Notes under the pieces: generated by a model
Told to the model about the DNA's origin: nothing
The model's input: the letters and a program-made list of their open reading frames with translations, nothing else
The model's database searches: none
NCBI GenBank assembly: GCA_963805625.1
Contig: CAWDVE010000010.1
Coordinates: 480,001-544,000 of the forward strand
Direction of reading: 5' to 3'
From: an uncultured Candidatus Rokubacteria bacterium
Lineage (GTDB): Bacteria > Methylomirabilota > Methylomirabilia > Rokubacteriales > DASRDR01
DNA: 64,000 nucleotides
Program-made: the position numbers and the translations under genes
Shown: one piece after another, positions 42,427 through 58,626 of the stretch
Layout of the letters: each line of letters opens with the position of its first letter
How positions within the stretch are numbered: position 1 is the first letter of the stretch

Positions 42427-42515
42427 TGGTGCCGGGGGAGGGAGTCGAACCCTCACACGTCTTGCGACGTAGCGGATTTTAAGTCCGCCGCGTCTCCCAG
42501 TTTCGCCACCCCGGC
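42427..42515 (-). tRNA. tRNA-Leu(TAA)
   Basis: GCCGGGGTGGCGAAACTGGGAGACGCGGCGGAC-TTAAAA-TCCGC, long variable arm, GGTTCGACTCC, encoded CCA. Confidence 0.95.
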
Positions 42516-42547
42516 AGTCTGAAGATCCGCGGAGTTACGATACCCCG

Positions 42548-43081
42548 TCACGCCCCCGGCGGACCACTGTGCCCAGAATTGTGCCCAGTACGCTCGGCCA
42601 CTGTGCCCAGGACTGTGTCCTGCGGCGGCGGGGGTACGCTCTCGATCTTCTGAATCAAGCTGTGCACGAAGGCGGCCTGGTCGTTGAACCACTCCGCCGT
42701 CATGTCGGCGATAGTCTCGACAGGGAACCGTCCGTCGTTGTCCTTCTCCCCGAACTTGACCAGCCGGAGCGGGAAGCCCGTGGTCCCCGTCGGGAAAACC
42801 CGTCCATGTGCAAAGGTGTCACGTAAGGCACCCACCCGATGCGGGTCGAACCGATTCGCCTGAGGAACGAGGCCATTGTAGCGTTCTATCGTTTTCCACA
42901 AGCCCCTGTAGTCAGCGAGCGCGTCGTAGGGGACGCGGTCACCCACTTGCAGGCTTCCCCAGTGCCAGTGTGCGCCGGGGCTCGGCTCGATGCGTTCCAT
43001 GGCGGTGCGCAGCGTGGTTTCCAAGAGCTGCAGAAGGGCCACTAGTCGTCCAAGCGCCTGGGTATGCTCGTTCGTGTCCAC
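42548..43081 (-). CDS. Hypothetical protein with a HEPN-like Rx4H motif
   Basis: GTG start directly after the integrase stop; helical N-terminus ALGRLVALLQLLE; motif LRDTFAHG. Confidence 0.55.
   Translation of the reverse strand: MDTNEHTQALGRLVALLQLLETTLRTAMERIEPSPGAHWHWGSLQVGDRVPYDALADYRGLWKTIERYNGLVPQANRFDPHRVGALRDTFAHGRVFPTGTTGFPLRLVKFGEKDNDGRFPVETIADMTAEWFNDQAAFVHSLIQKIESVPPPPQDTVLGTVAERTGHNSGHSGPPGA
42568..42621. repeat. Putative integrase arm-type sites (TGTGCCCA repeats)
   Basis: TGTGCCCA at 42568, 42580 and 42602, and TGTGTCCT at 42614. The 19-mer GTGCCCAGAATTGTGCCCA recurs at 55319-55337. Confidence 0.7.
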
Positions 43082-43083
43082 AG

Positions 43084-44127
43084 CTATCCGCCGCTGGACA
43101 TCATGTGGGCACGGGCTAGCTTTTCCGCGCCCTCCCGCAGCATCGCCTCGTCCACAATCGCGTACCGGCGGTAGATCGCCTCCGTCTTGTGGCCGACCAT
43201 CTTCATCGCCGTCGAGCGGGGGACGCCGGCCCGCTCCAGGTTGCGCACCGCGGTCCGGCGAAGGTCGTGGGGAATCCGCCCCGGCACGCCGGCGGCCGTG
43301 CACGCGAGCGACCAGGCTTTGCGGAAGTCCCGGATCGGCTTGCCCCGGCGATGGAACACCCAGGGGATGATCCGCTTCCGGGCGCGCTGCCAGCGGTCCG
43401 TTTCGGTGCGCTGCGCGTCCAGGACCTCGTGCAACTCGGGCGTCAGGATGAACGTCCGCCCCTCCTGGTTCTTCGTGGTGCCCGGCTCCAGGCGGATCGT
43501 TCCGGCCTTGACATCGACCTGGCGCCACTGCAGCGGCTGCAGTTCACTCGGCACGCGCCACCCGGTGATGTAGGCGGCGGTCACGAGGCCGCGCAGCTCC
43601 GGCGCGAGCCGGCTCCGGACGGCCTCAAACTGCGGTCGGTCGAAGAAGCCCTGCCGGACGTTGTCCTCCCGGAGCAGGCGAATGCGGGGCGCCCGGTGGA
43701 GCCGCTCGGCATCGAGCGCGAGCGAATAGGCGCGCTTGAGCGCGGCCAACTCGCGGTTGATCGTGCCGTTCGCGGCGCCGGCGGCCTGCCGCGTGGTCGC
43801 GTAGGCCGTGAGATCTGCGCTCGTGACGTGGACGGCGCGCCGCGGGCCGAAAGCCGGCCGCAGATGCCCGAGGCTGATGTCCAGGCGGTCGAGCGAACGC
43901 CGACCGTTCGCCTGGTAGTCGGCCTTGAGGGTATCGAGCAGGTGGTCGACGGTGACCTTGTCGACGCGCGGGATCACGGGCCGGCCCTCGATCGCGGCGC
44001 CCTCTCGGACCTTCAGGAGCCGCTTCGCGTCCCCCTCCTTCGTCGACCCGCTCGACTCGCGGATGATCCGGTCGTGAGCGCGGTACTTGAGCCACCACAC
44101 GTCCCCCCGTCGATACACGCTGCCCAT
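43084..44127 (-). CDS. Tyrosine recombinase/integrase
   Basis: Arm-binding N-terminus (GSVYRRGDVWWLKY), TGWR, TKN, HDLRR, GHKT, YRRY catalytic set. Confidence 0.93.
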   Translation of the reverse strand: MGSVYRRGDVWWLKYRAHDRIIRESSGSTKEGDAKRLLKVREGAAIEGRPVIPRVDKVTVDHLLDTLKADYQANGRRSLDRLDISLGHLRPAFGPRRAVHVTSADLTAYATTRQAAGAANGTINRELAALKRAYSLALDAERLHRAPRIRLLREDNVRQGFFDRPQFEAVRSRLAPELRGLVTAAYITGWRVPSELQPLQWRQVDVKAGTIRLEPGTTKNQEGRTFILTPELHEVLDAQRTETDRWQRARKRIIPWVFHRRGKPIRDFRKAWSLACTAAGVPGRIPHDLRRTAVRNLERAGVPRSTAMKMVGHKTEAIYRRYAIVDEAMLREGAEKLARAHMMSSGG

Positions 44128-44157
44128 CAGGCTCCCCTCCCCTCGTCGGTCGACGTG

Positions 44158-44865
44158 CTATTCTGCGGTCGCGTAACGTATCCCGCCCAGGAGGACTCCG
44201 CCATGACCGAGGCGCCCGAGATCACGAGCCCCTACGAGCCGCCCTGTATCGAGCGGGTCCTGACCCCGGAGGACCTGGAGCGCGAAGTCCTGTACGCGGG
44301 GTTCGATGCGGTCTCCGCCGACCAGAACTAGTCTCACCGCTCCAGCGCCGCCATGCGCGGCGCGAGGTCCCGCCCCGCCCGCTCCCCTTTGGCCTAGGGT
44401 GCGCGGGACCCAGACGGTCGCGCGATTCGAAAGAGGGTTGACGTGCTGGGACGAGTAGACAAACGCCCCCGTCGCGACCGTGATCGTGATCACCTCCGGC
44501 GACTCCCCCGGCGCCCGCTCACTCGGGAGGAGTATGAGACCTATTCCCATCGGGTCGGTTTCGATGCGCCAGAGGCTCGCGGGGACATCGATCTGTTGCA
44601 GCGTTCCGCTATAGCGAGTCACCCGGGCGCTCTTCGGCGACCCGGGCAGCACGTCGATCCGCCACTGGCTGGTGTTCCTCTGGCGTTCTAGCGGGCCGCT
44701 AACCTTCTCGGCCTTCTTCCCGCTCCCGAGTTCGGTGTGGTAATAGCCGACGGCCGCCGACTCGTTCGATTGACACAGCAACGCCGTGGCCTCGGTCTCG
44801 GCCGCGACCGGCGAGCCGACTGCCAGCACGACCACGACGACAAGGAGCCATGTCACCGAAGTCAT
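44158..44865 (-). CDS. Exported hypothetical protein (the 3' extension past ~44400 is probably read-through)
   Basis: Signal peptide MTSVTWLLVVVVVLAVGSPVAA and a beta-rich body. The tail overlaps the opposite-strand peptide. Confidence 0.5.
   Translation of the reverse strand: MTSVTWLLVVVVVLAVGSPVAAETEATALLCQSNESAAVGYYHTELGSGKKAEKVSGPLERQRNTSQWRIDVLPGSPKSARVTRYSGTLQQIDVPASLWRIETDPMGIGLILLPSERAPGESPEVITITVATGAFVYSSQHVNPLSNRATVWVPRTLGQRGAGGAGPRAAHGGAGAVRLVLVGGDRIEPRVQDFALQVLRGQDPLDTGRLVGARDLGRLGHGGVLLGGIRYATAE
44203..44331 (+). CDS. 42-aa peptide with YEPPxIE leader-like motif
   Basis: GGAGGA Shine-Dalgarno; MTEAPEITSPYEPPCIERVLTPEDLEREVLYAGFDAVSADQN. Confidence 0.6.
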   Translation: MTEAPEITSPYEPPCIERVLTPEDLEREVLYAGFDAVSADQN

Positions 44866-44937
44866 GTCGATTACCCCCAGGTCTTATCCGGCCAGGCCCA
44901 CGGCTCTGTTCTCGCACCGCGCGGGGGCACCTCTCCG

Positions 44938-45228
44938 TTACGTCGCCGTCGTCCTTCGGACCCGCTGCCAGAGGACCACGCCCGCGAGCGCGACGAGGAG
45001 CAGCATCGCGCTACTCGCCTCCGGCACCGCCGTGGTCTCGGTCGTGAGGCTCGGGGCTGCGGTGATCGTCACGCTCGCGCCCGTCGTTTCCGTCGTGTCC
45101 GTCGGCAGCGTGAGGCACTCGGGGCAGTTCGTCCAGCCATGCTCGGTCAGCCGGTAGGTGTGGCCAGAGGAGCTCGTATACCACTCGCCGACGTGATACC
45201 AGCCGAGGCTCGTCCAATCGATGTACAT
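44938..45228 (-). CDS. Small protein with PEP-CTERM-like sorting tail
   Basis: Thr-rich linker, then VPEASSAMLLLVALAGVVLWQRVRR. Confidence 0.55.
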   Translation of the reverse strand: MYIDWTSLGWYHVGEWYTSSSGHTYRLTEHGWTNCPECLTLPTDTTETTGASVTITAAPSLTTETTAVPEASSAMLLLVALAGVVLWQRVRRTTAT

Positions 45229-45231
45229 GGC

Positions 45232-45597
45232 TCACTCCAACGGCGTCGTCAGCGGCACGCCGAGGCACGCGGGACACTGGATATAGCCGGCGGCCCGGTT
45301 CCCCGGGAGCGCCCAATACGCCTCCACGGGTGGGATGCGGAAATGCCAGACGCAATCAATCAGGGCGACAAACCACTCGACACAGCACGGCGGACACCCC
45401 TCGGCGAGGCCACACTGCCGGATCGGCTCAGACCCGGGGTCGTTGCGCGCCGGACTCCTCGCCGCGAGGACGATCAGGTCGGCCACGGTGATCAGGCGAG
45501 GCCCGCGATCCTCGACCCGCCGGCGGCGGGGGCGGCGTGGCCACGGCCCCAGCATCGGCGGGCACTCGAAGAGCCGGAGTTGCGCGGTGTCCGTCAT
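45232..45597 (-). CDS. Cys-rich hypothetical protein
   Basis: CPPCC and CPAC motifs; overlaps the Xre gene stop. Confidence 0.5.
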   Translation of the reverse strand: MTDTAQLRLFECPPMLGPWPRRPRRRRVEDRGPRLITVADLIVLAARSPARNDPGSEPIRQCGLAEGCPPCCVEWFVALIDCVWHFRIPPVEAYWALPGNRAAGYIQCPACLGVPLTTPLE

Positions 45598-45800
45598 TCC
45601 AGCAGCGCCGTCACCGGCACGCCGAGGGCCTTCGCGAGACGCTGGAGCATCCCCACCGTGGGGTCCGAGCGCCCCTCCTCGAGCTTCGTGATGTACTCCC
45701 GACTCACGCCGGCCGCCTTCGCCAGCGCGTAGCGGCTCAGTCCCTTGGCCTTCCGCGTCTTTTTGAGCGTCATGCCGATCTGCCTCGGTGTCGGGCTCAT
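45594..45800 (-). CDS. Xre/Cro-family HTH regulator
   Basis: LKKTRKAKGLSRYALAKAAGVSREYITKLEEGRSDPT...LAKALGV. Confidence 0.88.
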   Translation of the reverse strand: MSPTPRQIGMTLKKTRKAKGLSRYALAKAAGVSREYITKLEEGRSDPTVGMLQRLAKALGVPVTALLE

Positions 45801-45804
45801 GTTA

Positions 45805-45820
45805 GTCCACTATAGTTGAC
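45805..45820. promoter_or_regulatory. Putative Xre operator overlapping a -10 box
   Basis: Near-perfect palindrome GTCCACTATAGTTGAC a few bp upstream of the Xre ATG (likely leaderless gene). Confidence 0.55.
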
Positions 45821-46056
45821 GATGCAAGAGGGCTCTCGGTGGTCGCGCGGGGCCGCGGCTCGGGGGGCTCGATCCATCCCGCCCGACCCTACCGCGAGCC
45901 GGTCCGGGGCGCCAGCCGGGGGCCTCGACGGAACCCCGACAGCGCGATACGCTGGGGCCCTCGGGACACGCTCGGAACGGCCGGGGCGGCAGTGTGACGC
46001 CGCGGTATCCGCTCCCCGTGCTGTACGAGCCAATCCGGCCGACAGCGAGGTGTCCC

Positions 46057-46305
46057 ATGACGACACCATTTCCCTCCCCCACAGCTCCCGATCCCCTCCG
46101 GTTCTCGATTCTCGGCACGATCGTCACGTGGGATTCGTTCGGGCGCTGGCTCCGCATCGGGGAGCGCAACTTCTGGGTGGCCCCGAGCGTGGCGGTGGCG
46201 GGCCTGGGTCCCGGCGTCAGGGTCACCGCCAGCGGGCACCAGGAGGACCTGACCGCCCGGTGGATCGTGACCAACGTGAAGCTCGCCGGAGACATCCCAT
46301 GGTGA
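46057..46305 (+). CDS. Small OB-fold-like (DUF5666-like) protein
   Basis: GTIVTWD...LGPGVRVTASG...WIVTNVKL; GAGG Shine-Dalgarno. Confidence 0.5.
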   Translation: MTTPFPSPTAPDPLRFSILGTIVTWDSFGRWLRIGERNFWVAPSVAVAGLGPGVRVTASGHQEDLTARWIVTNVKLAGDIPW

Positions 46306-46353
46306 CCGCGTCAGCGCCCCGGTGAACCGCGACCGGCCGGATCCCGCCGCGGC

Positions 46354-46848
46354 TCATGCCGAGTCCGTCGGAGGGTCCGGGAGGGCCGGGGCCGTCGGCC
46401 ACGCGGAAGGCGCGAAAGCGAGGACCTTGACCCCGTCGGCCCGCTCCGTGATGTTCACCACTTCGAGCACCACCGCCGGGGCCGCCGCGAGCCGGGCGAG
46501 GAAGTCCACGGAGACTCGCACCCGGTCACCTGGGCGGATGGCCGACTCCACCAGCCGGTCGAATTGGTCCGTCGGCACGTTCGCCACGCGGAGGGCGGTC
46601 CGCTTCTGGTCGCGGGACATCCCAGCATCGCGGGCCGCGCTGGTACGTGTGCCAACGGGGGACCGACCCCCCGTTGCCGAATTGCCACGGTCTCCACCGC
46701 GCGCCGGAGCGATCGACCGGAGCAGCGCCCCGCACCGCGCGATGGCCCGCGCCTGGATACGCTCGGCCATCTGGCGCAGCGGGAGTGGGGCGCCAATACC
46801 CCAATTCTGCCCGGCGGGCAGAATGACCCACCCCGCCCGGGGGGTCAT
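46354..46848 (-). CDS. Phage-type hypothetical protein with HTH-like segment
   Basis: ERIQARAIARCGALL...AARDAGMSRDQKRTALRVANVP. Confidence 0.5.
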   Translation of the reverse strand: MTPRAGWVILPAGQNWGIGAPLPLRQMAERIQARAIARCGALLRSIAPARGGDRGNSATGGRSPVGTRTSAARDAGMSRDQKRTALRVANVPTDQFDRLVESAIRPGDRVRVSVDFLARLAAAPAVVLEVVNITERADGVKVLAFAPSAWPTAPALPDPPTDSA

Positions 46849-47231
46849 GCCGGGACCCCGTGTTCGAGGGCCGCCGGACGTGCGGACCCGTCAGAACTCG
46901 CGTCCTCACGGGGGTCCTGCAGGCTCCGCGGCCGCCTGGGGGCGAGGCGACCCGGGGCGGCCGCCCGTTTCAGCCCCCAGCGGAACCGGCCCACGGGAAT
47001 GGTGTAGAACCGGCCCGAGCAGGCCCCCCCGGGGAACCGGGTCTCCCGCGCCGCCGGAATGCCGAGCCGCGCGAGCTTGCGCCACGTGACCGGCGAGGCC
47101 GACCAGAGGTGGACCTGGTCGTCCGCGCGGTCCCAGCGGATCGTGGTTTCTTGCTCGGCGCGGGTGGCGCGATACGCCGCCGAGGCCGCGGCGGGTTGAC
47201 GACGACGCGGACGCAGGGATAGAGTCGGCAT
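46845..47231 (-). CDS. Phage-type hypothetical protein
   Basis: EQETTIRWD...SPVTWRKL; GGAG Shine-Dalgarno; overlaps the next gene. Confidence 0.55.
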   Translation of the reverse strand: MPTLSLRPRRRQPAAASAAYRATRAEQETTIRWDRADDQVHLWSASPVTWRKLARLGIPAARETRFPGGACSGRFYTIPVGRFRWGLKRAAAPGRLAPRRPRSLQDPREDASSDGSARPAALEHGVPA

Positions 47232-47253
47232 GGTCTCCAGGCGCTCCTGTTCG

Positions 47254-47288
47254 ACGGCCCCGCCGGAGGCTGAATCCGGCGGGGCCGT
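47254..47288. terminator. Strong hairpin downstream of the virion-protein gene
   Basis: ACGGCCCCGCCGGA-7 nt-TCCGGCGGGGCCGT, a 14-bp perfect inverted repeat; no clear U-tract. Confidence 0.5.
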
Positions 47289-47301
47289 GTTCGTGGTGGC
47301 C

Positions 47302-48150
47302 CTAGTAGCGGAAGTCCCCGCGTCCCGAATACGTGCTGGCGCCGACGTTCCCGTACCGCGAGTAGACGAACGGGCTGGCGGCTGCGCTGGCCCCGCTCAA
47401 CAGCGTCGAGCCGACCCCGAGATAGCCCGCCGTCCGCACCCCACCCGCCTGAAATCCATAAAGATTCGCCTGCGAGAGATCCGCGGCGGATCGGGAGAGT
47501 CCGCCGAATCGCGCGAACGCCGCTTCCCCTATGAGCGATCCCGCCCGGAGTGCGCCTTCACTGCGCGCATACGCTGAGCCGGCCCGCATGCCGGCCACGT
47601 CCACCGCCACTTCGTAATCGTGCACCGCGAGCTCCTGCCCGACGGTGTCCGCATTTTCCATGAGCACCATCAGGGGCGACCCCGTGGTATCGACACCCGC
47701 CTTCCCGATCGCGGCGCGCACCTCGCTTTGCGTCCGGTCGTAGTTGCGACGAATGGCCGCCTCTTGGATCTTCCCGGCCGCTTCCCGCGCGAGGGCCTGT
47801 TGCTCGCTGAGGGTGGCCTGCGCCTCAGCCAACGACAGCGCGCCCATGGCTTGTCGCTCGAGGAGTTTGCCTTGCAGCTCGGCCATTCGGGCTTGATAGG
47901 CCGCTTGCTGACGCGCGAGTGCCGCGTTGTACTCCAGGGCCGCCGCTTGCTGCTGGGAGGCCTGGTAGGTCCCGTAGGCCGAGACGCCCGCCGCGACCAC
48001 GGCCGCCACCGCCGCAATGGCCGCAAAGGCCGCCGGCGAGAAGTGGCCCACCTCGGCCTCGACTCGCCAGTTGGGATCGACGGCCTCGCCGCAGAGTCGG
48101 CTGAGACGGGCGTCGAAGGACTCCGGACATCCGGGACGGGCTCGACTCAT
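47302..48150 (-). CDS. Internal virion/ejection protein-like (T7 gp14-like architecture)
   Basis: Ala/Gly hydrophobic N-terminus, Q/A coiled coil (LEYNAALARQQA), AAIGKAGVDTTGSPL motif, C-terminal STLLSGAS. Confidence 0.65.
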   Translation of the reverse strand: MSRARPGCPESFDARLSRLCGEAVDPNWRVEAEVGHFSPAAFAAIAAVAAVVAAGVSAYGTYQASQQQAAALEYNAALARQQAAYQARMAELQGKLLERQAMGALSLAEAQATLSEQQALAREAAGKIQEAAIRRNYDRTQSEVRAAIGKAGVDTTGSPLMVLMENADTVGQELAVHDYEVAVDVAGMRAGSAYARSEGALRAGSLIGEAAFARFGGLSRSAADLSQANLYGFQAGGVRTAGYLGVGSTLLSGASAAASPFVYSRYGNVGASTYSGRGDFRY

Positions 48151-48160
48151 CGGGGCCTCC

Positions 48161-48478
48161 TCACTCGTCCAGCAGGGTCGTCTTGCGGCGACGCGGGCGG
48201 ACGAGGAGTCCCCGCGTCTTGTCGGTCCCGGGCAGGGCGCCGGCCTTGTCGCCCGGCGGAATCGGTCGGGTGGCCGGTGGCACCCGCGGCCCCGGGCCGG
48301 CCACGGGCACGTACGTCACGGTGGGACCCGTGCGCGGCCGCACCGAGAGCACCTGGAACCCGCCCTGACCCGGCTCGCCCGTCTTGACCTGCGGCCCCGC
48401 GGTCGCCGTCGTCACCGAATTTTTCGGCGGGGTGTAGTAGGGCACCGGCGTCGGCCGCGGGTAACTCGGGTGGCCCAT
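48161..48478 (-). CDS. Pro-rich hypothetical protein
   Basis: Abuts the scaffold-like gene (1-nt overlap); ends RRRKTTLLDE. Confidence 0.5.
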   Translation of the reverse strand: MGHPSYPRPTPVPYYTPPKNSVTTATAGPQVKTGEPGQGGFQVLSVRPRTGPTVTYVPVAGPGPRVPPATRPIPPGDKAGALPGTDKTRGLLVRPRRRKTTLLDE

Positions 48479-49203
48479 CAGCGGGCTCGCCGGCCATGCT
48501 GCCGCGCCTGCATATACTCCTCGCGGAACCGGGGCTCGTACTTCGCGATCAACTGGGACGCCTCGGGATCGTGCCCGAGCAACGCGCCGAGTCGCGCCAG
48601 TTCCATGATGACCTGCGGGTGATTGCCCGCGCGCGTCCGGTCAAACTCCTCGCGCAACTCGCCCGGACGGCCCCCGCGGCGCTGATCCAACACCTCGAGC
48701 GCCGCCTTCGCTTGCGCCATCATCCGCGGATAGTGCGCCCCCCAGTGGCTTTGCAAGCGCTCCGCCGCCACCTCGCGACTCGGGATCGATCGCCCCTCGG
48801 CCACCGTAGGCTTCGGCTGACTGGCGTCCAGGATCCAGTTGACGACCGGGTTCGCCTCGGACTCTGACAGGTTGAACGCGCGACACGCGGCCGTCGCGAT
48901 CGAGCGATCCACCGCCGTGAACGTCTCCTCCGTCCGGCCCGGCGGCATCGCGATCTCGTAGTCCAGGTTCGGCGCGACCGTCGCCCCGCTCGCGGCGGCC
49001 GCCGTCCCGTGGACGGTCTCGTACAAGAGTGCCATTTCGCGCAGCGCCGTCGGGTCCCCCCGATGAAACGGATGCGCGAGATCCCCGCGAATCTCCGCAA
49101 TCCGGACCTCCGCCGCGGCGCGATCGGGCGGGCCACTCGGCGCCGGCTCGGGACTGGGGGCGGGACTCGGACTCGGGACGGTCGGGTCGAGGGGCTCAGG
49201 CAT
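48478..49203 (-). CDS. Podovirus-type capsid scaffolding-like protein
   Basis: Pro-rich N-terminus, RIAEIRGDLAHPF...EMALLY, LQSHWGAHY...AKAA, GNHPQVIMELARLG. Confidence 0.55.
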   Translation of the reverse strand: MPEPLDPTVPSPSPAPSPEPAPSGPPDRAAAEVRIAEIRGDLAHPFHRGDPTALREMALLYETVHGTAAAASGATVAPNLDYEIAMPPGRTEETFTAVDRSIATAACRAFNLSESEANPVVNWILDASQPKPTVAEGRSIPSREVAAERLQSHWGAHYPRMMAQAKAALEVLDQRRGGRPGELREEFDRTRAGNHPQVIMELARLGALLGHDPEASQLIAKYEPRFREEYMQARQHGRRAR

Positions 49204-49945
49204 CCGGGTCTCCTTCCGGGTCGCCGCCGAGGGGCCGGCGCGCCGCCGGGCCGGTCGGGGGGGCCGGGGGCACGAGCTCGACGCCCGCCCCCCGCACCGT
49301 CATCGCATAGTCAATGCGCGCGCACAGCTCATCCAGCGCCCGGAGATCGTTCTGCACTTGCACCGGGACCGGCTCCGATTCCTCCACCGCCGTCTTGATC
49401 GCGTTCACCCGGCAGCCGTGCGGCATGCCGCCCGTCACACACTGATGCACGTCGCGGTGCGTGAGCGCCGCAATCTGCGACGGCACCCGCTCGAGGAGCG
49501 TGATCGTCGACTGATCCTTCGCGTCCCGCGCGCGCACCGCGCTGGCCAGCCGCGCCTGCAGCGACCGACAGTCTCGAACCAAATGCGAGCCGCCGCCCAA
49601 GATCAACTCCCACTTCAGGACCTCCCCCTGGATCTCCAGCCGCTGCAGCCGGTCCAGCCGGGACGTCACCGCCGGCACCAGCGGCCGCAACCGCGCCAAA
49701 CACGCGGCCGCGCGCTCCACGTAGGGCGCGAGACTGTCGCGGAGCGCCTGCCCGGCGGCGTCGGCCGCCTGCTCGGGCGCCCGCGCCCGCGCTTCGAGCC
49801 GGGCCAACGCATCCTCGGACGGCGGCGCCTCGGGCTCGATCCTGACCTTCGGCGGTCGGCCCCGCGGGCGCTTCGACGGCTCGGGCGGGGGGATCGTGTC
49901 GCGCGCGGCCTGTTGGACTTCGGTGCGGACCTTCGTCATCGGCAT
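49196..49945 (-). CDS. Hypothetical protein with AT-hook motif
   Basis: GGAGG Shine-Dalgarno, MPMTKV start, KRPRGRPPK AT-hook. Confidence 0.55.
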   Translation of the reverse strand: MPMTKVRTEVQQAARDTIPPPEPSKRPRGRPPKVRIEPEAPPSEDALARLEARARAPEQAADAAGQALRDSLAPYVERAAACLARLRPLVPAVTSRLDRLQRLEIQGEVLKWELILGGGSHLVRDCRSLQARLASAVRARDAKDQSTITLLERVPSQIAALTHRDVHQCVTGGMPHGCRVNAIKTAVEESEPVPVQVQNDLRALDELCARIDYAMTVRGAGVELVPPAPPTGPAARRPLGGDPEGDPDA

Positions 49946-49955
49946 CGGGACCTCC

Positions 49956-50216
49956 TCACAGCCCGTAGGCGGTGCGGACGTTCGCCGCGCTATAGCTCTT
50001 CCACGACAGCTCGCCGGCGAGCCCGCCCTTGGCATTCGATTCTTCCGTCGCCACCGTATTCGGCGCATCCGCTGGGTCGGGGTCGTGCACCAAAAACACC
50101 CCAGCGGTCGCGTCACTCGTCGCCGTCGGCACGGCCAAAATCACGCTGAGGCGCCGCCCACTGCTCATCAGCTGGCGGCGAATGTCCAGGAGGTCGGCAT
50201 AGGTCACCGCAGCCAT
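49956..50216 (-). CDS. Hypothetical protein
   Basis: Operonic spacing; AAAGGAG Shine-Dalgarno. Confidence 0.55.
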   Translation of the reverse strand: MAAVTYADLLDIRRQLMSSGRRLSVILAVPTATSDATAGVFLVHDPDPADAPNTVATEESNAKGGLAGELSWKSYSAANVRTAYGL

Positions 50217-50515
50217 CAGTTCGCTCCTTTCGGATCGGAGAGGAGGATCGCGCCCTCGCCCAACAACGTCGGACGGCGCGCGGGCGGGGGCGAGATCGGG
50301 ATCGGGGGTGGGGCACTCCCCGGGGCGGGCGCGGGGCGTCGGCGCCGTCGCCGCCGGGACGGGACGCCCGTGGCGACATACACCGCCTCCTCGAGGCCGT
50401 CCTGCACGTGCACGCCCGCCCGGCGGTACGTCATGCCGTGCCAGGCCACGACGGCGCCCCCGGCGCCCGGCAGGCGGGTGAGCACGCGCGTCAGGGACTC
50501 GTCGTAGAGCACCAT
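50216..50515 (-). CDS. Hypothetical protein
   Basis: Operonic spacing; Arg/Pro-rich C-terminus. Confidence 0.45.
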   Translation of the reverse strand: MVLYDESLTRVLTRLPGAGGAVVAWHGMTYRRAGVHVQDGLEEAVYVATGVPSRRRRRRRPAPAPGSAPPPIPISPPPARRPTLLGEGAILLSDPKGAN

Positions 50516-50516
50516 G

Positions 50517-50933
50517 TCAGGCCGACTGCAGCTCCGCCGCCAGCGCCTGCACCGCCTTGTCGCGCGACGTCGCCAACTTCTGCTGCAGCCGCCCCACCTG
50601 CCCCTCCAGCGTCGCCACCTCGGCCTGCCGCTGCTGGATCCGCTGCTCGAGCCCGGCGAGCTCCGCCTCCCGGGTCCCCACGCGCTCCGCGTGCGCCGCC
50701 CGGCTCGCCTCCCACTCCCGCTCGACCTGCCGCATCTCGTTCGCCTTCGCCGTCGTCCACGCCGGCACCTGCGCCGCCAGCCGGGTCACCTGCGCGCTGA
50801 GGGTGTGACGCTGCTCGCGCATCTGCTCCGCCACCGTGGCCTCCGCCTGCGCCCCCTGCTGGAGCGCCGTCAGCGCGGCGTCGATCGCGGCGAACTCCGT
50901 GAACTTCGATTCCAGGTCAACTCGGTCTGTCAT
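50517..50933 (-). CDS. Coiled-coil hypothetical protein
   Basis: Long heptad-rich helix; AGGAG Shine-Dalgarno before MTDRV. Confidence 0.6.
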   Translation of the reverse strand: MTDRVDLESKFTEFAAIDAALTALQQGAQAEATVAEQMREQRHTLSAQVTRLAAQVPAWTTAKANEMRQVEREWEASRAAHAERVGTREAELAGLEQRIQQRQAEVATLEGQVGRLQQKLATSRDKAVQALAAELQSA

Positions 50934-51218
50934 TGGTCGCACTCCTGTTCAGGGTGAAGGGTGCACGGCGCTTGGGGACATGGGGCGATGGGGACGGTCC
51001 CGGACGGGGTCATGACGGCCCGTTCGGGCCGACAGTTTCGGGGGGGGTGGGGTGGCAGGGTGTTTCGCTGCGTGCCCGGCGCCCCCCGCTCCCCGGCGGC
51101 CGGCGATGGACGGGGGCTCATGGGCCGAGCCAGTAGTCCAAGAGGATCTTGACCCACACGCCGAGCGCGATCGCCCAGGCGGCTCGCGTCAACCACCGGC
51201 CATCCAAGCGGGGGCGGA

Positions 51219-52448
51219 TCATCGCGGCGCCTCCCGGTGCGCCAACACGAATTGCTCGAGGTCGTCGACCAGGATGTGAATGAGCTTCTCGCGCGAGGTG
51301 CCCTGCCCGCCCGGAAGCCGCACCGCCGGCAGCAGGCCGCGCGACACGAAGTCACGGACCTTCCCGTACCCCACGCCGAGGTAGACGCCGGCCTCCTTGA
51401 GCGTGTAGAGCCGCTTCAGGCGCGCGAGGGAGAGGGTCGCGGCGTCGAAGCTCACCCCCAGGAGGGCGCGGAGGGTCTTCTGGTTGGTGATCCGGTTCGT
51501 CCGGATCAGGGTGGCGGCCTGGTCGTCCAGGGCGGCGGCCTGGGTCGCGTCCGCCTGGCGGCCCTCGGCCTCGAGGTCGGCCCGGGTGCGCGGGTCGGTT
51601 TCGATGACACAGGAGCGCCGGGGCCGGCCGTACTCGTCGTCCTCCCCGAGCCGCACCCGCACCCGTCGGAGTCGGAGGGGAGCCGGCTTGGCGTCGTCCC
51701 GGACCTTCAGGGTCGTCAGGAGCAAGTCGGCGATCCCGAGTTCCCCATTGTCGGCCGTGACCTCGAGGTAGAACACGCCATCGGAGTTGCCCCGGAAGGC
51801 CGAGGAGCCCCGTTCGCGCTTCTTTTTCGTCTCCCCGTCTTGCCACCCGGCATGATGGGCGAGCACCGCCCCGGCGTCGGGCACCACGGTGAGCAATCGG
51901 CGGACGACGCGGAGATACGCGGCGACATCCTCGGAGCGATCCTCGGAGCCGACCATCGACGCCCGGAGCGTGTCGATCAGGAGCAGCACCACGGGCGGCC
52001 CCCCGGCCGTCGCGAGCTCGGCGACGAGGGTGCGGAGGCTGTCGCGGAGGGCGCACTCCCCCGCCGAGGGGGTTTCCTGCCCCTCGCGGTCGACCCGGGG
52101 CGAGATCGGCTCGCCGGCGCGGAGCACATAGAGGTGCCGCACGTCCCGGGACGTGACCTGGAGGGCGGCGAGCCGGAGCCCGAGGGCATCCCCCTCGAAG
52201 CTGACATACGCCACCGTGCCGGCCTGCGCGGGGCGGCCATGCCACTCCTTCTCCCCGCCCGCCACGGCCGCGGCTAGGTCGAGCAAGACGAACGTCTTTC
52301 CGGCCCCGGACTCGGAGACCAGCACACTGACCCCGCGCTGCCACGCGAACTCGGCCACGAGACTGATCGGCGGGGGGTCGGTGAGGAGGTCGAGGGCGGG
52401 CCGGAAGCGGGCGACGTCGATCGAGTCCGTCACGGCGTCGAGGTTCAC
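51219..52448 (-). CDS. RepA/AAA_25-type replicative helicase with C-terminal excisionase-like HTH
   Basis: Walker A SESGAGKT, LLLIDT, AHHAG, RGSSAF; tail RLYTLKEAGVYLGVGY. Confidence 0.8.
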   Translation of the reverse strand: MNLDAVTDSIDVARFRPALDLLTDPPPISLVAEFAWQRGVSVLVSESGAGKTFVLLDLAAAVAGGEKEWHGRPAQAGTVAYVSFEGDALGLRLAALQVTSRDVRHLYVLRAGEPISPRVDREGQETPSAGECALRDSLRTLVAELATAGGPPVVLLLIDTLRASMVGSEDRSEDVAAYLRVVRRLLTVVPDAGAVLAHHAGWQDGETKKKRERGSSAFRGNSDGVFYLEVTADNGELGIADLLLTTLKVRDDAKPAPLRLRRVRVRLGEDDEYGRPRRSCVIETDPRTRADLEAEGRQADATQAAALDDQAATLIRTNRITNQKTLRALLGVSFDAATLSLARLKRLYTLKEAGVYLGVGYGKVRDFVSRGLLPAVRLPGGQGTSREKLIHILVDDLEQFVLAHREAPR

Positions 52449-53311
52449 CGGACGGACTCCCGGGCGGCCCGGAGATCCCGCCAGTCGCGCCCGCGACAAT
52501 GGCCGTGATGACACACGAAGTCGAACGCCCCGCTGGCGCGGATGAGGATCGCGGCCCCGCCGGGGCCGGTCGTATGGACGTCGGCCCAGGGGCAGCGGGC
52601 CAATTCGAGCAGGTAGCCGTCCGCCCAGCGCTTGAGGGGGCCGACGGTACGGAGCCCCCAGGCCTGGGCCTTGGCCAGCAACGTGCCGCCGAGATCATCC
52701 GGGGGCGGCCTTGACGGGCCGGCATACGACGATCGGCCAGGCGGGGGAGTCAAGAGCCGGACCACCTGATCGAGGATCGCTTGCCGGGGCTGCACCGCCG
52801 AGGGCGTCCCGGCCCACGTGTGCCCGGTCACGACCATGACCTTCGCCCGGTCGTAGAGCTCGAGGTGCGCTTCGGGATGCGTGATGGGATGGGGGAGCGT
52901 GCCGTGCACGAAGAGATGTAACCCCGTGCCGCTCACGCTGATCTCGGTCCAGGACTGCACGTGCGCCACCAGCCGCGCGGCCCCGGGCAGGAGCTGTGCC
53001 CCGTCGAGCACCCCGTCCAGGTCGAAGCAGGTGATCTGCGCCTCAGCGGTGAGCACCGCGCCGATCCCGATCAATGGGCCGATGACCGGATTCGGATCGC
53101 GGTGGGGACCTGTCAGGAGCGCGTAGGCGTCCACGGCCTCCCCGAACGTGCCCCACGTCTCGGGGTCCGTGCTCGAGGCCCGTCGGGTCGGATCGCTGAT
53201 TCGATAGGGGACCTTCTGAGGCTTGCCCGCCCGCGGCTCGGCCCGCGAGAGCACCCAGGGTTGGGCCCGCAGGACGGCGGGGATCGCGTCGGGGATCAGC
53301 TCACGCCACAC
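52445..53311 (-). CDS. Primase-polymerase (AEP, NrS-1 N-terminal type) with C-terminal Zn-binding domain
   Basis: KVPY...ASSTDPETW, CFDLDG, EISVSGTGLH, ELYD...TG; CPW...H...CHHGHC. Confidence 0.82.
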   Translation of the reverse strand: MWRELIPDAIPAVLRAQPWVLSRAEPRAGKPQKVPYRISDPTRRASSTDPETWGTFGEAVDAYALLTGPHRDPNPVIGPLIGIGAVLTAEAQITCFDLDGVLDGAQLLPGAARLVAHVQSWTEISVSGTGLHLFVHGTLPHPITHPEAHLELYDRAKVMVVTGHTWAGTPSAVQPRQAILDQVVRLLTPPPGRSSYAGPSRPPPDDLGGTLLAKAQAWGLRTVGPLKRWADGYLLELARCPWADVHTTGPGGAAILIRASGAFDFVCHHGHCRGRDWRDLRAARESVR

Positions 53312-53359
53312 GGGCGACCTCGGGGAAGAGGGTCGAGAGCAGGAGGTTCATGGCGGGGG

Positions 53360-53692
53360 TCATCGCCGGCCCGCCTCGTCGTCGAAGGCCGCCGGCGTGA
53401 CCCAGACGTCCCCGCGGGGCCGGGCCTCGGCCCACGCCAGGGCACAGGGCTCGCACAGCTTCACCGGCTCGAGCGGCGAGGATCGGCCCCAGATGATCGC
53501 GGTGCCGCAGTCGGCGCACGCGCCCGTCTGCATGGTGGGGATGAGGGTCCGCGCCTCGGCCTGACGGGCGGGCGACTCGTGTGGGAGCTGCGCCATCGCG
53601 GCGTCCCACTCCGCACGTCGGGCACAGACGATCACAGTGGGCCGCCGCGTGGCGATGTGTTCGACGGTCCGCCGCCATTCGTCCCGGGTCAC
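53360..53692 (-). CDS. Zn-finger hypothetical protein
   Basis: GTG start overlapping the upstream stop; CADC...CEPC. Confidence 0.55.
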   Translation of the reverse strand: MTRDEWRRTVEHIATRRPTVIVCARRAEWDAAMAQLPHESPARQAEARTLIPTMQTGACADCGTAIIWGRSSPLEPVKLCEPCALAWAEARPRGDVWVTPAAFDDEAGRR

Positions 53693-54063
53693 CCGGCCAT
53701 CTCCGCGAACTCGTCCGCCTCCGCAATGAGCGCGCGGAGTTTCTTGGGCGAATGGCCGCCGGTGTTCTGGAGGAGCCAGACGAGGTAGTGGCTGAGCGGT
53801 TGCCACCACCAGTGCGTCCACCGCGGATCGCGCCCGAGGCAGTCGTTCATCTTGCAGAGCACGACGATCGGCGAGAAGCCGTCCTCGGTGATGGTGTCCG
53901 GGTGCCAGACGATGCCGGCGATCTTGACGTCGGTGATCCACTCGCCACACCCGGCGCAGCGGAGGCGCGGATAGTTGTGGCCGCGGCGGTGCCGGACGCC
54001 GAAACTCGGCGTGGTCGGCCCTCCGGGTCCGTAGAGGTCGTCGGACGAACGCGGGGTCGTCAC
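53689..54063 (-). CDS. Zn-finger hypothetical protein
   Basis: CAGC...CKMNDC; 4-nt overlaps at both ends. Confidence 0.55.
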   Translation of the reverse strand: MTTPRSSDDLYGPGGPTTPSFGVRHRRGHNYPRLRCAGCGEWITDVKIAGIVWHPDTITEDGFSPIVVLCKMNDCLGRDPRWTHWWWQPLSHYLVWLLQNTGGHSPKKLRALIAEADEFAEMAG

Positions 54064-54272
54064 GCCGCCCTCCGGCGCTGCCCGTCAGCATTCTGCCCGC
54101 CGGGCAGATTGGGTCGGGCGGCCTGCTCGAGGGCGAGGACGGCCGCATCGAGCCGGAGTGAGCGTCGTCGAGTGAAGGCCCCGTCGAGGACCCGCTCGGC
54201 CCGCGCGAGCGCGAACCCGAGGAGCAGCTGCGCCGGCACGGGGGGTAGCCGGCGGGCCACGAGTGCGGACAT
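54060..54272 (-). CDS. Hypothetical protein
   Basis: Operonic position with 4-nt overlap. Confidence 0.4.
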   Translation of the reverse strand: MSALVARRLPPVPAQLLLGFALARAERVLDGAFTRRRSLRLDAAVLALEQAARPNLPGGQNADGQRRRAA

Positions 54273-54293
54273 GGCGCGCGGGTCCGGCTCCGG

Positions 54294-54497
54294 CTACTCG
54301 CGCCCCTTGGCGCGGGCGAGGAACGCCAGAAGGCTCGCCTGTGGCACCCGCGGCATGCGGGGTCCGATGTGGATGGTCTCCAGCTCCCCCCGGCTGATGA
54401 GCCGATCGAGAGTCGCGTCCGAGACCTTGAGGAGCCTCATGACCTCGGCGCGTCGGTAGAGCTGCTCGGCGCGCCGCTCGTCGACCTCTATGAGCAT
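54294..54497 (-). CDS. Excisionase/AlpA-like HTH_17 DNA-binding protein
   Basis: LYRRAEVMRLLKVSDATLDRLISRGELETIHIG...RVPQASL; GGAGG Shine-Dalgarno. Confidence 0.82.
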   Translation of the reverse strand: MLIEVDERRAEQLYRRAEVMRLLKVSDATLDRLISRGELETIHIGPRMPRVPQASLLAFLARAKGRE

Positions 54498-54563
54498 CCG
54501 GGCCTCCCGAGGCCACTTGGGCCTGCGAGGGGCACGTTACTGGAGGGAGACGCGCCGGTCTAA

Positions 54564-54595
54564 CGAGTAACCTTTTGGGGCGAAAAGGTTACTCG
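54564..54595. promoter_or_regulatory. 13-bp perfect inverted repeat upstream of the xis operon
   Basis: CGAGTAACCTTTT-ggggcg-AAAAGGTTACTCG. Confidence 0.6.
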
Positions 54596-54601
54596 GCCGA
54601 A

Positions 54602-55192
54602 TCAAGGCGGCGGGGGCACCTCGATGAGTCCGACGTCCCGCAACCATTCCGATTGCCACTCATAGTCCGTGACGCCCGCCGCTGTGAGCCGCTCACGGGT
54701 GTGGCGGAGGATGCGGTTGAGCGGCTTTCCGGGCGTGGGTCGGCGGGTCTGGCGGGAGGCATCGATCCAGGTCGCGTGTGTCATCCACGACGCCAGACGG
54801 GTCGTGAGGTCTCGCGCCTCCTCGTCCTCGGCCAGGAGCCACAACTCCCGGAGGAGCGGAGGGAGATCACGCCGTAGCTGGCGGACGCGGATCTCCAGGT
54901 CCTGGTAGATCATGGCGCGCTGGCTTCTCACCTGCTCCTGGTAGTGCTCGACCAAGCCCGCACACAGCGCCGCGCACAGGCGGTCCTCGTCGATCCCTTG
55001 GACCCGGGCGGCCTCGAGGTGGTCCTCACACTCGCGTTCTCGATCAGGGTGAAACGGCAGGAGGGCCCTGAGCGCCCGCGCGCGATCCGCTCGCGTCTTC
55101 CACCGGCCTTGGAGGGACAGGACCGAGGCGGGATCGGGGAGTTGCGCCTGGGGATATCGCGCCTGCGAGCGGCGGACTCGCTTCTTCGCCAT
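54602..55192 (-). CDS. Hypothetical protein (first gene of the island)
   Basis: GAGGGGAG Shine-Dalgarno; helical, basic protein. Confidence 0.6.
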   Translation of the reverse strand: MAKKRVRRSQARYPQAQLPDPASVLSLQGRWKTRADRARALRALLPFHPDRERECEDHLEAARVQGIDEDRLCAALCAGLVEHYQEQVRSQRAMIYQDLEIRVRQLRRDLPPLLRELWLLAEDEEARDLTTRLASWMTHATWIDASRQTRRPTPGKPLNRILRHTRERLTAAGVTDYEWQSEWLRDVGLIEVPPPP

Positions 55193-55471
55193 GGCTCCCC
55201 CTCGTGGAGCGCCTCAAGGGACGGGGCCGGTGGGCGAGGGCGGTGAGGAGCCGCCCCGTCGACGCCAGTAGCGAGCTGGCGCCTACGCCCACACGAGTCA
55301 GTCTACGCGATCACCGCCGTGCCCAGAATTGTGCCCACGGCGACGTCACGACCCGACACAATCCAGCACAATCCGACGAATTGGAGCAGGCACAGAGACC
55401 GAGCGGGCCGATCGCGAATCGCCCGTCAGGATGCGGGGATCGTGACGCGCGACGCGTGCCGACGGGGTCGC

Positions 55472-55510
55472 TTTTAAGTCCGCCGCGTCTCCCAGTTTCG
55501 CCACCCCGGC
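55472..55510 (-). repeat. att repeat: 5' half of tRNA-Leu(TAA) through the anticodon loop
   Basis: Identical to 42477-42515. Confidence 0.92.
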
Positions 55511-55726
55511 TGGTCGACGAGCGAGAAGTTACGATACACTGCGAGGTTCCCGCGGCGCCACTTTGCCCGGACCTTTGCCCACGATCACGCACTGGGGGGC
55601 TAGTCCATGGCCTGTCGCTGGACCGCTCGTCTCCTTCAGCGCTGATACACGATCCCTGTGAGCACGCCCTGGTTCAGGTCCGAGTCGACCCCATGCTGGT
55701 CCTTCTCGAGGAGGCTCACGCTCCGA

Positions 55727-55993
55727 TCATGCGGAGCCCCCGGAGGCGTTCGTTTGATCCACCAGCTGCCCAATCAGCCCGCGGCGCTCCGCGCAGTCCG
55801 CCCGATCCGGGCACGCGAACACGAGGGTGCAGTCCTCCACGTGCAGCATGAGTGTCGGCGCGCCCGCGGTCGCAGCGACGAGTTGGCGCAGTCGCGCGAT
55901 CCACGTTTGGTCAGGGTGTTCGGAGAGCATCAAGCGCATGTTCTCGGTGTCCGGAACGCGAACCGACTCACCCACGATACGAATCTGTTGCAT
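55727..55993 (-). CDS. Hypothetical protein
   Basis: GGAGGGG Shine-Dalgarno; 88 aa of ordinary composition. Confidence 0.5.
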   Translation of the reverse strand: MQQIRIVGESVRVPDTENMRLMLSEHPDQTWIARLRQLVAATAGAPTLMLHVEDCTLVFACPDRADCAERRGLIGQLVDQTNASGGSA

Positions 55994-56403
55994 CGCGCCC
56001 CTCCTGCCTCCGACCGACGTGCCATACTGGCGGTTCGGGTGCCGGTGACGGTGATCGGTCGAACGCTCCCTGGCCGTGAGACCTACGCGAACTGTCTAGC
56101 GAAGTCCTCGGTCCGGATGACCGGGACACGTATGCGGTGATGTCCAGCTGCACGCGCTTCACGCATCGAGCCGACGCCCCAACGAATGTCGTCAGGGCGA
56201 TCTGCTGCCGCTCTCCTGGATCGAAGGACCACCCACTCTGGCAACATCCGAGCTGACCCATGGAATTCAACGCCGCGACGTGTGTCAGCGCGAGGACGAA
56301 GCTGCTCCCTCGCCTTCGCCTCGTGCCGCGGGGCCAATATTAGGCCGCTACCCGTGAACGACACAGAATTGCCCAGAGGCGGCGATCCCTCAGCGGCTTC
56401 CGG

Positions 56404-56646
56404 CTATCGTGGAGCGGCTTCCTGGAGCGCGAGCAGGGCGGTCGACAGCTCGGCGGCCGTCCAGTCTAGGTCCTCGATAGGGACCCGCAGGGTTGCCCGT
56501 ATCGAGATGGGCCCCGTGCGGGCGAGGCGCTCGAGCATCTCCTGGGCATCCCGGACCGCATTGAAGGCCCGGCGCAGGCGATCCACGGCCATGGCGTTCG
56601 GAGAGAGTGGCAGCGGCGCTGTCCCCGGGCGAACGAAGCGGGGCAC
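56404..56646 (-). CDS. Hypothetical protein
   Basis: Short helical ORF with GAGG upstream. Confidence 0.4.
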   Translation of the reverse strand: MPRFVRPGTAPLPLSPNAMAVDRLRRAFNAVRDAQEMLERLARTGPISIRATLRVPIEDLDWTAAELSTALLALQEAAPR

Positions 56647-57007
56647 GTCAGCGACCGCCTCGGCGGTTGCGATTCAGGATCACGGCGGCGGGGTACTTGA
56701 TTCGTAACGTCGTCTTCTTTGCCATGGCCGAGGATACCATGGGCAGAGTGTTCATGCAGGGCCGCTTCAGAACGCCAAATGGTTGCCACTGCGGTGAGCC
56801 AGGGAGTCGCGCTGCCACGAGACGCGGTCAGTCGCTCGTGGGTGCACGCCGACGAGGCCCGCGCCGCCTGCGGGCTTGCCCGCTCCCGCCGTCCGGGATC
56901 GACTGGCCGCGAGCCGGCTCGTTCCTCATGAACCGATCGGTCGGGGCGGACGCCATGCCGGCGGCGTGTTTGGGGTCGAGAGTGGCGCAGGCCGACCCGT
57001 CCGGCGG

Positions 57008-57352
57008 CTAGCGGTCCGCGCTCCGGGCCTTCTCGCGAGCTTCCTTGAGCCGGCGCTCCGCGAACTCGATCCGCGCGGCTGCGGCGTTCAGCTTTTCCTC
57101 GGCCGCGTCCAGGTCGGCCTCGGCGGCCTCGAAGTTCGTGTAGATCGGCGTGAGCTCGTGGTCTGGCTCACCGGCCTTGGCCCGGCGGGCCAGGGTAGCC
57201 CGGCCTCGCTCGATTGCCACACGGCGTCTCGATACGCTGGCGCGCCCCTTGGCGAGATCATCGCGGGCCGTGAGCTGCAGCGCTTCCGCGGCCTTCAAGT
57301 CTTTCGCCGCCTGCCGCCGTGTTGCTGGGCTCTCCTTGGGGTCTTCGGACAT
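57008..57352 (-). CDS. Coiled-coil hypothetical protein
   Basis: GGAGGAG Shine-Dalgarno before MSEDPK. Confidence 0.5.
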   Translation of the reverse strand: MSEDPKESPATRRQAAKDLKAAEALQLTARDDLAKGRASVSRRRVAIERGRATLARRAKAGEPDHELTPIYTNFEAAEADLDAAEEKLNAAAARIEFAERRLKEAREKARSADR

Positions 57353-57415
57353 GACACTCCTCCTTCCCAGCAGCGCCATCGCCGGCACGCCGAGTCGTTT
57401 GGCAGCTTCCGGAGC

Positions 57416-57574
57416 CTAGCGCCCCTTCTGTGCGATGACCACGAAGAGGGCCAGGGTCGCCGTCTGGCCCGCCGAAAGGACGTTGTGGATGGCATAGCCA
57501 TCCTGGTCGAGCTGGTTCAGTGCATTCTCGAGCGTCTCGGTGTTGCACTTGATCACCTTCCATTGATGCGCCAT
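57416..57574 (-). CDS. DUF4177-like small protein
   Basis: QWKVI...LENALNQLDQDGYAI pattern. Confidence 0.55.
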   Translation of the reverse strand: MAHQWKVIKCNTETLENALNQLDQDGYAIHNVLSAGQTATLALFVVIAQKGR

Positions 57575-57691
57575 CCGAACCCTCGCCTTCCTGTAAGAGG
57601 CGCCCCGGAATGAGGCCCCTCGTATCTCGCAGTTTCGGAACCTCACGCATCTCGGCGGCCAGTGGTGGCAGCGTGGAGGGATGTGGAAGGT

Positions 57692-57767: not shown

Positions 57768-58024
57768 TTTTCAACCGCTTAGCTGAGATAAACCTCACGC
57801 ATTCTACCCTATGTGCCCACCTGTGTGCCCGCGGGATGCGAGTCGCGCGTGACCGCAGGCACCGGCGCGGGCATCGCGTGGCCGAGTCCCTCGAGCCGTT
57901 CGACCGCGCCCCGAAGGTGTCGCACCCCATCGCACGGCGATTCCCGTCCGCCACACGCGAACATCATCGACCTCGATGGTGACTCCGTACGGGCCGAGAG
58001 ACGGCGGCAGAATCTCCGTGGTAC

Positions 58025-58340
58025 TCATGGCGTCCCCTGCTGTGTAGGGGGCGCTGGCAAGGCTAGTACGCCGAAGGCCTTGTGACCAACGAGGCGATCA
58101 TTGGCGTGCAGGCGAAACTCGTAGGCCCCTGGGCGCTCGAATCGCAGACCCGGCAGGGTAAAGATGATCTCCGTCGTCTTGCCACGGTCTTCGATCGTCA
58201 TCCGCCCTCGAACTTCCCCGATAGTTACCAGATCCTCCAGATGAACCAGCTGAAGCCGCACGGTGTACTCACCCCGTGCGTCGGTGAGCATCGCGTAGAC
58301 CGCGAGAGAGTGATGCCTGACAGGAAAGCTTGGGGCCAGG
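58025..58340 (-). pseudogene. 5'-truncated DUF6941-like gene
   Basis: APSFPVRHHSLAVYAMLTDARGEY...FERPGAYEFRL; in-frame stop upstream, no proper N-terminus. Confidence 0.45.
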
Positions 58341-58626
58341 GATACTCACGCACACGGAGCGGCAGCGGCCGAAGCAGCACCGAGGGAATCGCGACGGCGT
58401 CCACGTCGTCCAGCACCCTAGCACCCGTCCCCGGGCGTCGTCAGGATGAGGGGCGGCGGTGGCGTCTTTCGCGCAGCGTCGCGCCACCAGTGCGGCGGGC
58501 GGCGGGCTCGGCGGGTCGGCCTGGACGTCGTGGCTCCTCCCTGGGGAGCCCCTGAAGGAACGCGCGGGCAGGCCGGCAGGGAGCCGGCCGTTCGGGTCGC
58601 GAACCCTAGCCCCGCGAGGCTTGCTC

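Follow-up and report, generated by a model that had tools for sequence, protein, structure and literature searches.

The DNA analysed here is a stretch of 64,000 nucleotides (the window) from an uncultured Candidatus Rokubacteria bacterium (GenBank assembly GCA_963805625.1, contig CAWDVE010000010.1, positions 480,001 to 544,000), and the element under study is an island of about 13 kb between window positions 42477 and 55510. The island is likely an integrated satellite of a temperate short-tailed phage of about 40 kb, and its rearranged scaffold protein is predicted to redirect the helper coat protein to small heads; we give this reading a probability of roughly 0.58. The small heads are predicted to fit the 13-kb island and not the phage. 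By analogy, it would be a satellite resembling the phage-inducible chromosomal islands (PICIs) and working as SaPI1 does with its CpmB protein. A preliminary description, made from the sequence, had proposed a satellite from the size and the int/xis/pri-rep core, and capsid remodelling from two resemblances, one to a podovirus scaffold and one to gp14-type internal virion proteins. Both resemblances hold, the gene order is not collinear with that of a related phage, and the layout recurs in other capsid-less islands, all of which supports the satellite reading as a whole.

A rearranged scaffold in a family of capsid-less islands

The scaffold gene (48478..49203; like all island features located below, except the tandem repeats, it is on the minus strand) encodes a protein of 241 amino acids (aa) with matches to phrog_3742 (E 4e-5) and phrog_458 (E 6e-4). 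Its counterpart is the gene between portal and major capsid in the complete podovirus G251 (IMG/VR contig L016) and in other podoviruses. The scaffold-like character attributed to it is thus borne out, and the order of its modules, which had been missed, is different. The helix pair that closes the phage protein is found at residues 30-68 of the island protein, the core occupies residues ~102-213 and the phage N-domain is absent; the protein therefore has the core helical domain of the two scaffold families, and neither their N-domain nor the C-terminal position of the helix pair. Residues 21-69 are 57-60% identical to the C-terminus of the L016/G251 scaffold. The predicted model is all-helical, with helices at 28-40 and 51-65 and a predicted local distance difference test (pLDDT) score of 73. 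Hidden Markov models (HMMs) of the separate segments were built from four phage scaffolds and run on ten island-type scaffolds. They placed the C-terminal motif near the N-terminus in five (E<1e-6) and the core downstream in eight of the ten, and detected the phage N-domain in none (0/10). The motif of the other five was located by profile alignment, with a score of 27.5 that 0/200 column shuffles reached (maximum 12.8). Besides the scaffolds found in islands, five more of this type are known as proteins without genomic context. A profile of the island scaffolds run on IMG/VR phages picked genes between portal and capsid (eight loci, six of them inspected). When viral contigs were scanned with the scaffold or the gp14-like protein as single queries, neither gave a match. 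Among GenBank phages the scaffold had one weak match, a Pelagibacter phage 'capsid assembly protein' at E 0.6 (E 0.4 with a scaffold homologue as query). The homologue P0165 was weakly recognized (2149) in a protein atlas, where the nearest named cluster, PF05396 Phage_T7_Capsid (16% of members, score 0.85), is to be taken as a lead only.

Two neighbours accompany the scaffold. The 249-aa gene at 49196..49945, which encodes an island-only helical protein with an N-terminal RGRPP motif, always lies directly upstream of the scaffold gene. Homologues are present in all three other island loci, with z 11-27 when scored against the window copy, but in none of the phage loci compared; Pfam and PHROG scans gave no match to the protein, and a search of the PDB with its homologues gave none below E 0.03. 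The 86-aa gene at 49956..50216 is a third phage-shared gene, overlooked in the preliminary description. Its product is common to podoviruses (51-66% identity to seven phage copies, 52% to that of L016/G251) and is likely to be a virion protein; in these phages the gene comes behind the capsid gene, with a 158-aa gene in between. An alignment of its 11 protein clusters retrieved contig L016, while a two-sequence alignment found no match in viral or metagenome contigs and a 12-sequence alignment none in genome contigs. The predicted model (pLDDT 82) had no Foldseek match in BFVD. A tree of 11 copies did not resolve, and a single origin of the island copies was neither supported nor rejected (p-AU 0.19, approximately unbiased test). 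At one phage locus (L033, 846-1391) the gene is present as two tandem paralogues.

The related phage G251 is a complete, temperate podovirus of 40,411 bp with direct terminal repeats and an integrase related to that of the island (30%). Its genes run in the order terminase, small genes, portal, scaffold, capsid, 158-aa gene and 86-aa gene, followed by two tail genes, a gene that we take to encode an acetyltransferase-like protein, the gp14-type gene and two large genes. It carries RecT and lambda-exonuclease genes, and the primase/helicase genes and the 249-aa gene of the island have no match in it. At the DNA level the phage shares with this genome 373 nt of the gp14 gene and two short unrelated matches; GC content is alike in both (0.67-0.69), and that of the island equals that of the host. 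A co-occurring podovirus with homologous scaffold and gp14 genes had been proposed as something to look for: such a relative exists in IMG/VR, and none was found in this genome. TerL matches on contig C11 were considered as a helper and rejected, having no match to podovirus genes; the TerL neighbour is presumably an HK97-type (prohead) protease. The same contig also has two islets (~18-23 kb and ~56-60 kb, 81% identical to each other) in which a large terminase gene adjoins tRNA-Glu sequences; they are perhaps remnants of capsid-forming satellites.

A second island (L001, ~14 kb) was found on contig C13 of the same genome, beside tRNA-Val and cut by the contig end. Its order is integrase, cargo, small gene, scaffold, 249-aa homologue, 86-aa gene, 99-aa gene, coiled coil, fused primase-helicase and xis. 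Among eight metagenome loci with the 86-aa gene, six are phage head modules and two (L030 and L032) are capsid-less islands of the same layout. The preliminary description had named full prophages at homologous loci, with the island as a deletion remnant, as the result that would speak against a satellite; the loci proved to be of these two kinds, and the genes of the island do not follow the order of the phage. A block of four genes (coiled coil, 86-aa gene, 249-aa homologue and rearranged scaffold) is present in L001, L030 and L032, and the islands that bear it differ in primase type and in site. In L030 a primase is present too, and host genes adjoin; both L030 and L032 are cut before their far end. 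Locus L002 was rejected as an independent copy because it duplicates part of L001 at 98.6% identity: its positions 8912-12358 repeat 3.4 kb of cargo and the scaffold gene, with the start replaced. Between helicase and helix-turn-helix (HTH), L001 has a 174-aa gene with a Cys/His motif (8976-9500), absent from the window island, without a family match and possibly a packaging gene; at its tRNA end is a cargo gene for a Clp-fold serine-protease-like protein (12928-13983; NF047768, E 4.9e-12, under the cut-off). A contig-edge fragment of another genome (G126; L010, 1-303) that matches the scaffold helix pair (E 1.9e-9) and adjoins a related integrase is perhaps a further island.

Ejection-type gene, integration site and remaining genes

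The gene at 47302..48150 encodes a 282-aa gp14-type internal virion (ejection) protein. It matches phrog_418, 'internal virion protein', with E 4.7e-15, and is 61% identical over 219 aa to its counterpart in podovirus L016, which occupies the gp14 position between the tail genes and the large core genes; both the profile and this position place it in the family. The gene is intact, with 71% DNA identity to the phage over 373 nt. The protein had no match among GenBank phages. The gp14 resemblance first proposed is therefore real, and the gene's standing has to be corrected: since it is absent from the sister island, it is accessory. Beside it, 48161..48478 encodes a 105-aa Pro-rich protein with basic ends, 76% identical over 42 aa to one in the sister island and without a family match. 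It compares with the two pre-portal genes of the phage at z about 2 (5.4 for the sister copy) and is a weak candidate for a pre-portal (gp7.3-like) virion protein. The arrangement recalls the podovirus ejectosome of T7 and Ar-KM. In Ar-KM a small pre-portal protein is described as binding the gp14-like channel protein (10.64898/2026.05.18.726046); in the island a small Pro-rich, basic gene adjoins the gp14-like gene, and the phage twin of the latter is preceded by the tail genes and followed by two large genes. The island differs in having no gp15/gp16 counterparts and in the weak pre-portal homology of its small gene. That the two proteins act together in island particles would be speculative.

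The island is bounded by a 39-bp exact direct repeat (42477-42515 and 55472-55510; spacing 12,995 bp), with identity stopping at both edges. The att repeats and the unit of 12,995 bp described earlier are exact; their derivation from a tRNA gene is added here. The target is an intact tRNA-Leu(TAA) gene (ARAGORN, 42427..42515), and the island sits upstream of it. The repeat corresponds to bases 1-39 of this tRNA, the copy at 42477..42515 having its 3' limit in the anticodon loop, so that the integration displaced the 5' half of the tRNA, now at 55472..55510, and not the usual 3' half. A promoter-like hexamer, TATCGT, is located 5' of the tRNA start (42537..42542) and again 5' of the displaced half, and the stretch TATCGTAAC stands in front of the intact gene as well as the displaced half. 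We infer that the promoter is supplied by the island, which would restore transcription of the tRNA. Tandem repeats of the TGTGCCCA type (family D1; 42563..42621, no strand assigned, with an extra copy at 55313-55337) occur at both island ends and are likely integrase arm sites. Four copies of tRNA-Asp(GTC) bases 1-40/42 on contigs C16 and C22 indicate that displacement of tRNA 5' halves recurs in this genome; 3'-half duplications of other tRNAs are numerous. Remnant islets at 55511-57691 and 57768-59278 of the window split a tRNA-Gly, Cys, Leu cluster. Positions 55511-55581 have the same promoter-like and arm-type motifs as the other island end, which suggests an earlier integrant at the same site.

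Family scans (Pfam and PHROGs) were run on 28 chosen island frames, of 196 mechanical open reading frames (ORFs) in 38-60 kb, and no capsid, portal, terminase or tail family matched at E<=0.1, in line with the capsid-less, portal-less and terminase-less content reported before. Of the mobility and replication genes named there, integrase, HTH_17 and AAA_25 were found again by Pfam and the primase by PHROGs; the 'AEP' type given to the primase drew no Pfam match. The tyrosine integrase (43084..44127) is full length (PF00589, E 1.7e-16; phrog_1, E 4.3e-42). It is followed by a variable cargo region (44158..47231), characterized by Pfam, PHROGs and comparison within the genome, with a PEP-CTERM fragment (44938-45228), an HTH_3 regulator (Pfam, 45594-45800), a phrog_33995 protein (46354-46848) and small genes that have copies in other islands of this genome. 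Beyond the 86-aa gene are a gene for a 99-aa protein common to the sister island (50216..50515; 38% over 97 aa to L001) and the coiled-coil gene heading the conserved block (50517..50942), whose positional counterparts in L001, L030 and L032 are weakly similar in sequence (z -0.5 to 2.8 from the window copy). An AAA_25 helicase (51219..52514, E 5.3e-22) has an in-frame C-terminal HTH_17 domain. The primase or primase-polymerase at 52445..53311 matches phrog_13901 (E 6.5e-27) and phrog_8643 (E 4.5e-19) and no Pfam family; its 'AEP' label is an assumption from motifs. An HTH_17 excisionase or regulator (54294..54497; PF12728, E 3.4e-7; phrog_66) and a 196-aa protein, product of the first island gene (54602..55192; recognized by ORF and codon bias, no family match over the cut-off), complete the set.

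Comparison with known satellites

The five core components of a PICI, as set out for SatelliteFinder (10.1101/2022.09.14.508007), were taken as criteria. Two of the five, the integrase (PF00589) and the primase-replicase module, are present. For the regulator (AlpA, MerR or Stl) the island has HTH_17 and HTH_3 proteins, with no AlpA or MerR among the matches listed. The 28 frames contain no capsid homologue as capsid-morphogenesis gene, a scaffold mimic standing instead, and no terS match at E<=0.1; the candidate in the sister island also had none. The same frames gave no match to P4-like Psu, Delta, Sid, epsilon or alpha, nor did the island show a capsid, portal, TerL, protease or head-tail connectors of its own, as in capsid-forming PICIs (cf-PICIs). 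By gene content the island thus fails to fit PICI type A/B, P4 and cf-PICI. Tycheposons of PICI-like type are described as carrying a capsid or terS gene (10.1101/2020.12.28.424599), and satellite families are reviewed in PMC11389934.

The closest functional parallel is SaPI1, a PICI of S. aureus with the helper 80alpha. Both are integrated islands with int, xis and pri-rep genes and about one third of the helper in size, and each encodes, beside a partner gene (CpmA in SaPI1), a mimic of the internal scaffold in which the coat-binding motif of the helper, a predicted one for the island, is used again (PMC6893505, PMC5644958). According to these papers, CpmB binds coat by a copy of the C-terminal motif of the helper scaffold and thereby shrinks 80alpha heads. 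In that system the capsid changes from T=7 to T=4. CpmB has 72 aa and a C-terminal motif, whereas the island protein has 241 aa, retains the core of the scaffold and has its motif N-terminally. SaPI1 also encodes TerS, none of which was found in the island, and the presumed helper of the island is a podovirus with internal virion genes. No island protein matched SaPI proteins in Pfam, PHROG or PDB searches. EcCIMP1, an E. coli PICI mobilised by Kapi1, shares an integrase, a regulator and a primase/helicase, has no identifiable capsid-morphogenesis or terminase gene, and is reported as evidence that a PICI lacking both ccm and terS genes is still open to mobilisation (PMC11773190). The portion of that description consulted contains neither 'ejection' nor 'scaffold', whereas the island has one gp14-type gene, short of a full P22 set, a rearranged scaffold and no AlpA match. 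P4 (Sid, Psu) and PLE (TcaP) are likewise capsid-less satellites whose helical scaffolds shrink helper heads (PMC10945586), but these scaffolds are external and not derived from the internal scaffold of the helper, and the island has no match to Sid, Psu, Delta or epsilon. No satellite bearing a gp14-type gene or a podovirus scaffold rearranged in this way appeared in the literature searched, which was covered at the level of titles and abstracts, supplements and most subscription papers lying outside.

Proposed mechanism, alternatives and implications

In the proposed pathway, helper infection or induction would lead to excision by recombination in the anticodon loop and to replication. The front helix pair of the island scaffold would then bind the coat protein from within, where the C-terminal helices of the helper scaffold would otherwise attach. 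In P22, the scaffold is described as binding coat through a C-terminal helix-turn-helix (PMC9965877). In the rearranged protein the core lies on the opposite side of this motif, which would alter curvature, as with SaPI1 CpmB. The 249-aa protein could serve as a partner of the CpmA or external-scaffold kind, and the 86-aa protein would equip the altered head. In the window copy, a recently captured gp14-type protein and its small neighbour may in addition be loaded into the ejection core. The size ratio of island to phage, 0.32, agrees with the one-third rule given for satellites and helpers (PMC9618062). A fuller version, in which a family of satellites rebuilds the podovirus helper particle at both ends (the head is made small by the module-swapped scaffold and completed by a captured head protein, while an own gp14-type channel and wedge replace those of the helper), is tentative and rather unlikely.

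Several observations weigh against a head-shrinking satellite. Neither a terS nor a pac mimic was found (Pfam and PHROG scans of the 28 frames; DNA comparison with the phage), and the sister island does without the gp14-type gene. The phage G251 is a relative and not a proven helper, and a search of this genome revealed no helper-type prophage, although the phrog_332 search also matched no control. The family is rare: beyond this genome the scaffold matched in 3/150 GTDB relatives, two of them near E 1e-3, and the 86-aa protein in 1/250, in a copy broken by a stop. Foldseek with the scaffold and 86-aa models found no match at E<=0.001, and a PDB sequence search with the scaffold and gp14 profiles found none. 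Coat binding by the C-terminal motif of this scaffold family is presumed by transfer from P22 and 80alpha. Furthermore, the helicase-HTH fusion may mark a deletion in the window copy, and three island lengths (3 x 12,995 = 38,985 bp) also fit a full-size head.

The last point leads to a satellite that does not shrink heads, whose scaffold and virion-gene copies would jam or divert helper assembly, as interference or population defence, while concatemers of about three copies travel in normal heads. Three units are close to 40.4 kb, marine satellites are described as packaging concatemers without remodelling (PMC9618062), and the island scaffold lacks the phage N-domain, as a dominant-negative protein might. 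We regard this possibility as unlikely, however: all island scaffolds keep the core domain, which is more than a poison requires, and the four-gene block is kept in three different primase-bearing islands. Less likely still is that the family is real and the window copy is no longer mobile, a cargo or defence islet in a tRNA hot spot. In its favour, helicase and HTH form one gene here and two in the sister island, where they are separated by the 174-aa gene that the window copy lacks; remnant islets adjoin, and no helper was found in the genome. Against this, the two att copies match exactly, the full-length integrase is preserved, and so is the gp14-type gene, which is still close to that of the phage. 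A podovirus prophage that decayed by deletion of its capsid, portal, terminase and tail genes would account for the three genes that closely resemble those of a temperate podovirus, whose integrase is related as well, but it is very improbable. The island order (86aa-249aa-scaffold-small-gp14) differs from that of the phage (small-portal-scaffold-capsid-158aa-86aa-tail-gp14), which argues against a remnant; neither gene order nor the order within the scaffold shows the collinearity with a parent phage expected of a defective prophage. The scaffold is rearranged alike in divergent copies, the primase/helicase and 249-aa genes are unmatched in G251, which has RecT and lambda-exonuclease instead, and the layout recurs at different sites.

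The family lies outside current satellite definitions and would be classed as prophage debris; its lineage is uncultured and of high GC. Four capsid-remodelling strategies are named in PMC10945586, none of them, in the text consulted, for a phage with an internal ejection core; with such a phage, a smaller head must still hold the core. The 86-aa gene flags a conserved podovirus protein of unassigned structure as worth stealing. If an own gp14-type outer-membrane channel is used, satellite particles may enter other hosts or evade superinfection exclusion. With the complete genome of a matching phage available, the scaffold idea could be put to the test by expressing a few genes in E. coli and, if the idea is true, the front-placed coat-binding motif would amount to an experiment of nature on the way in which scaffolds determine capsid size.

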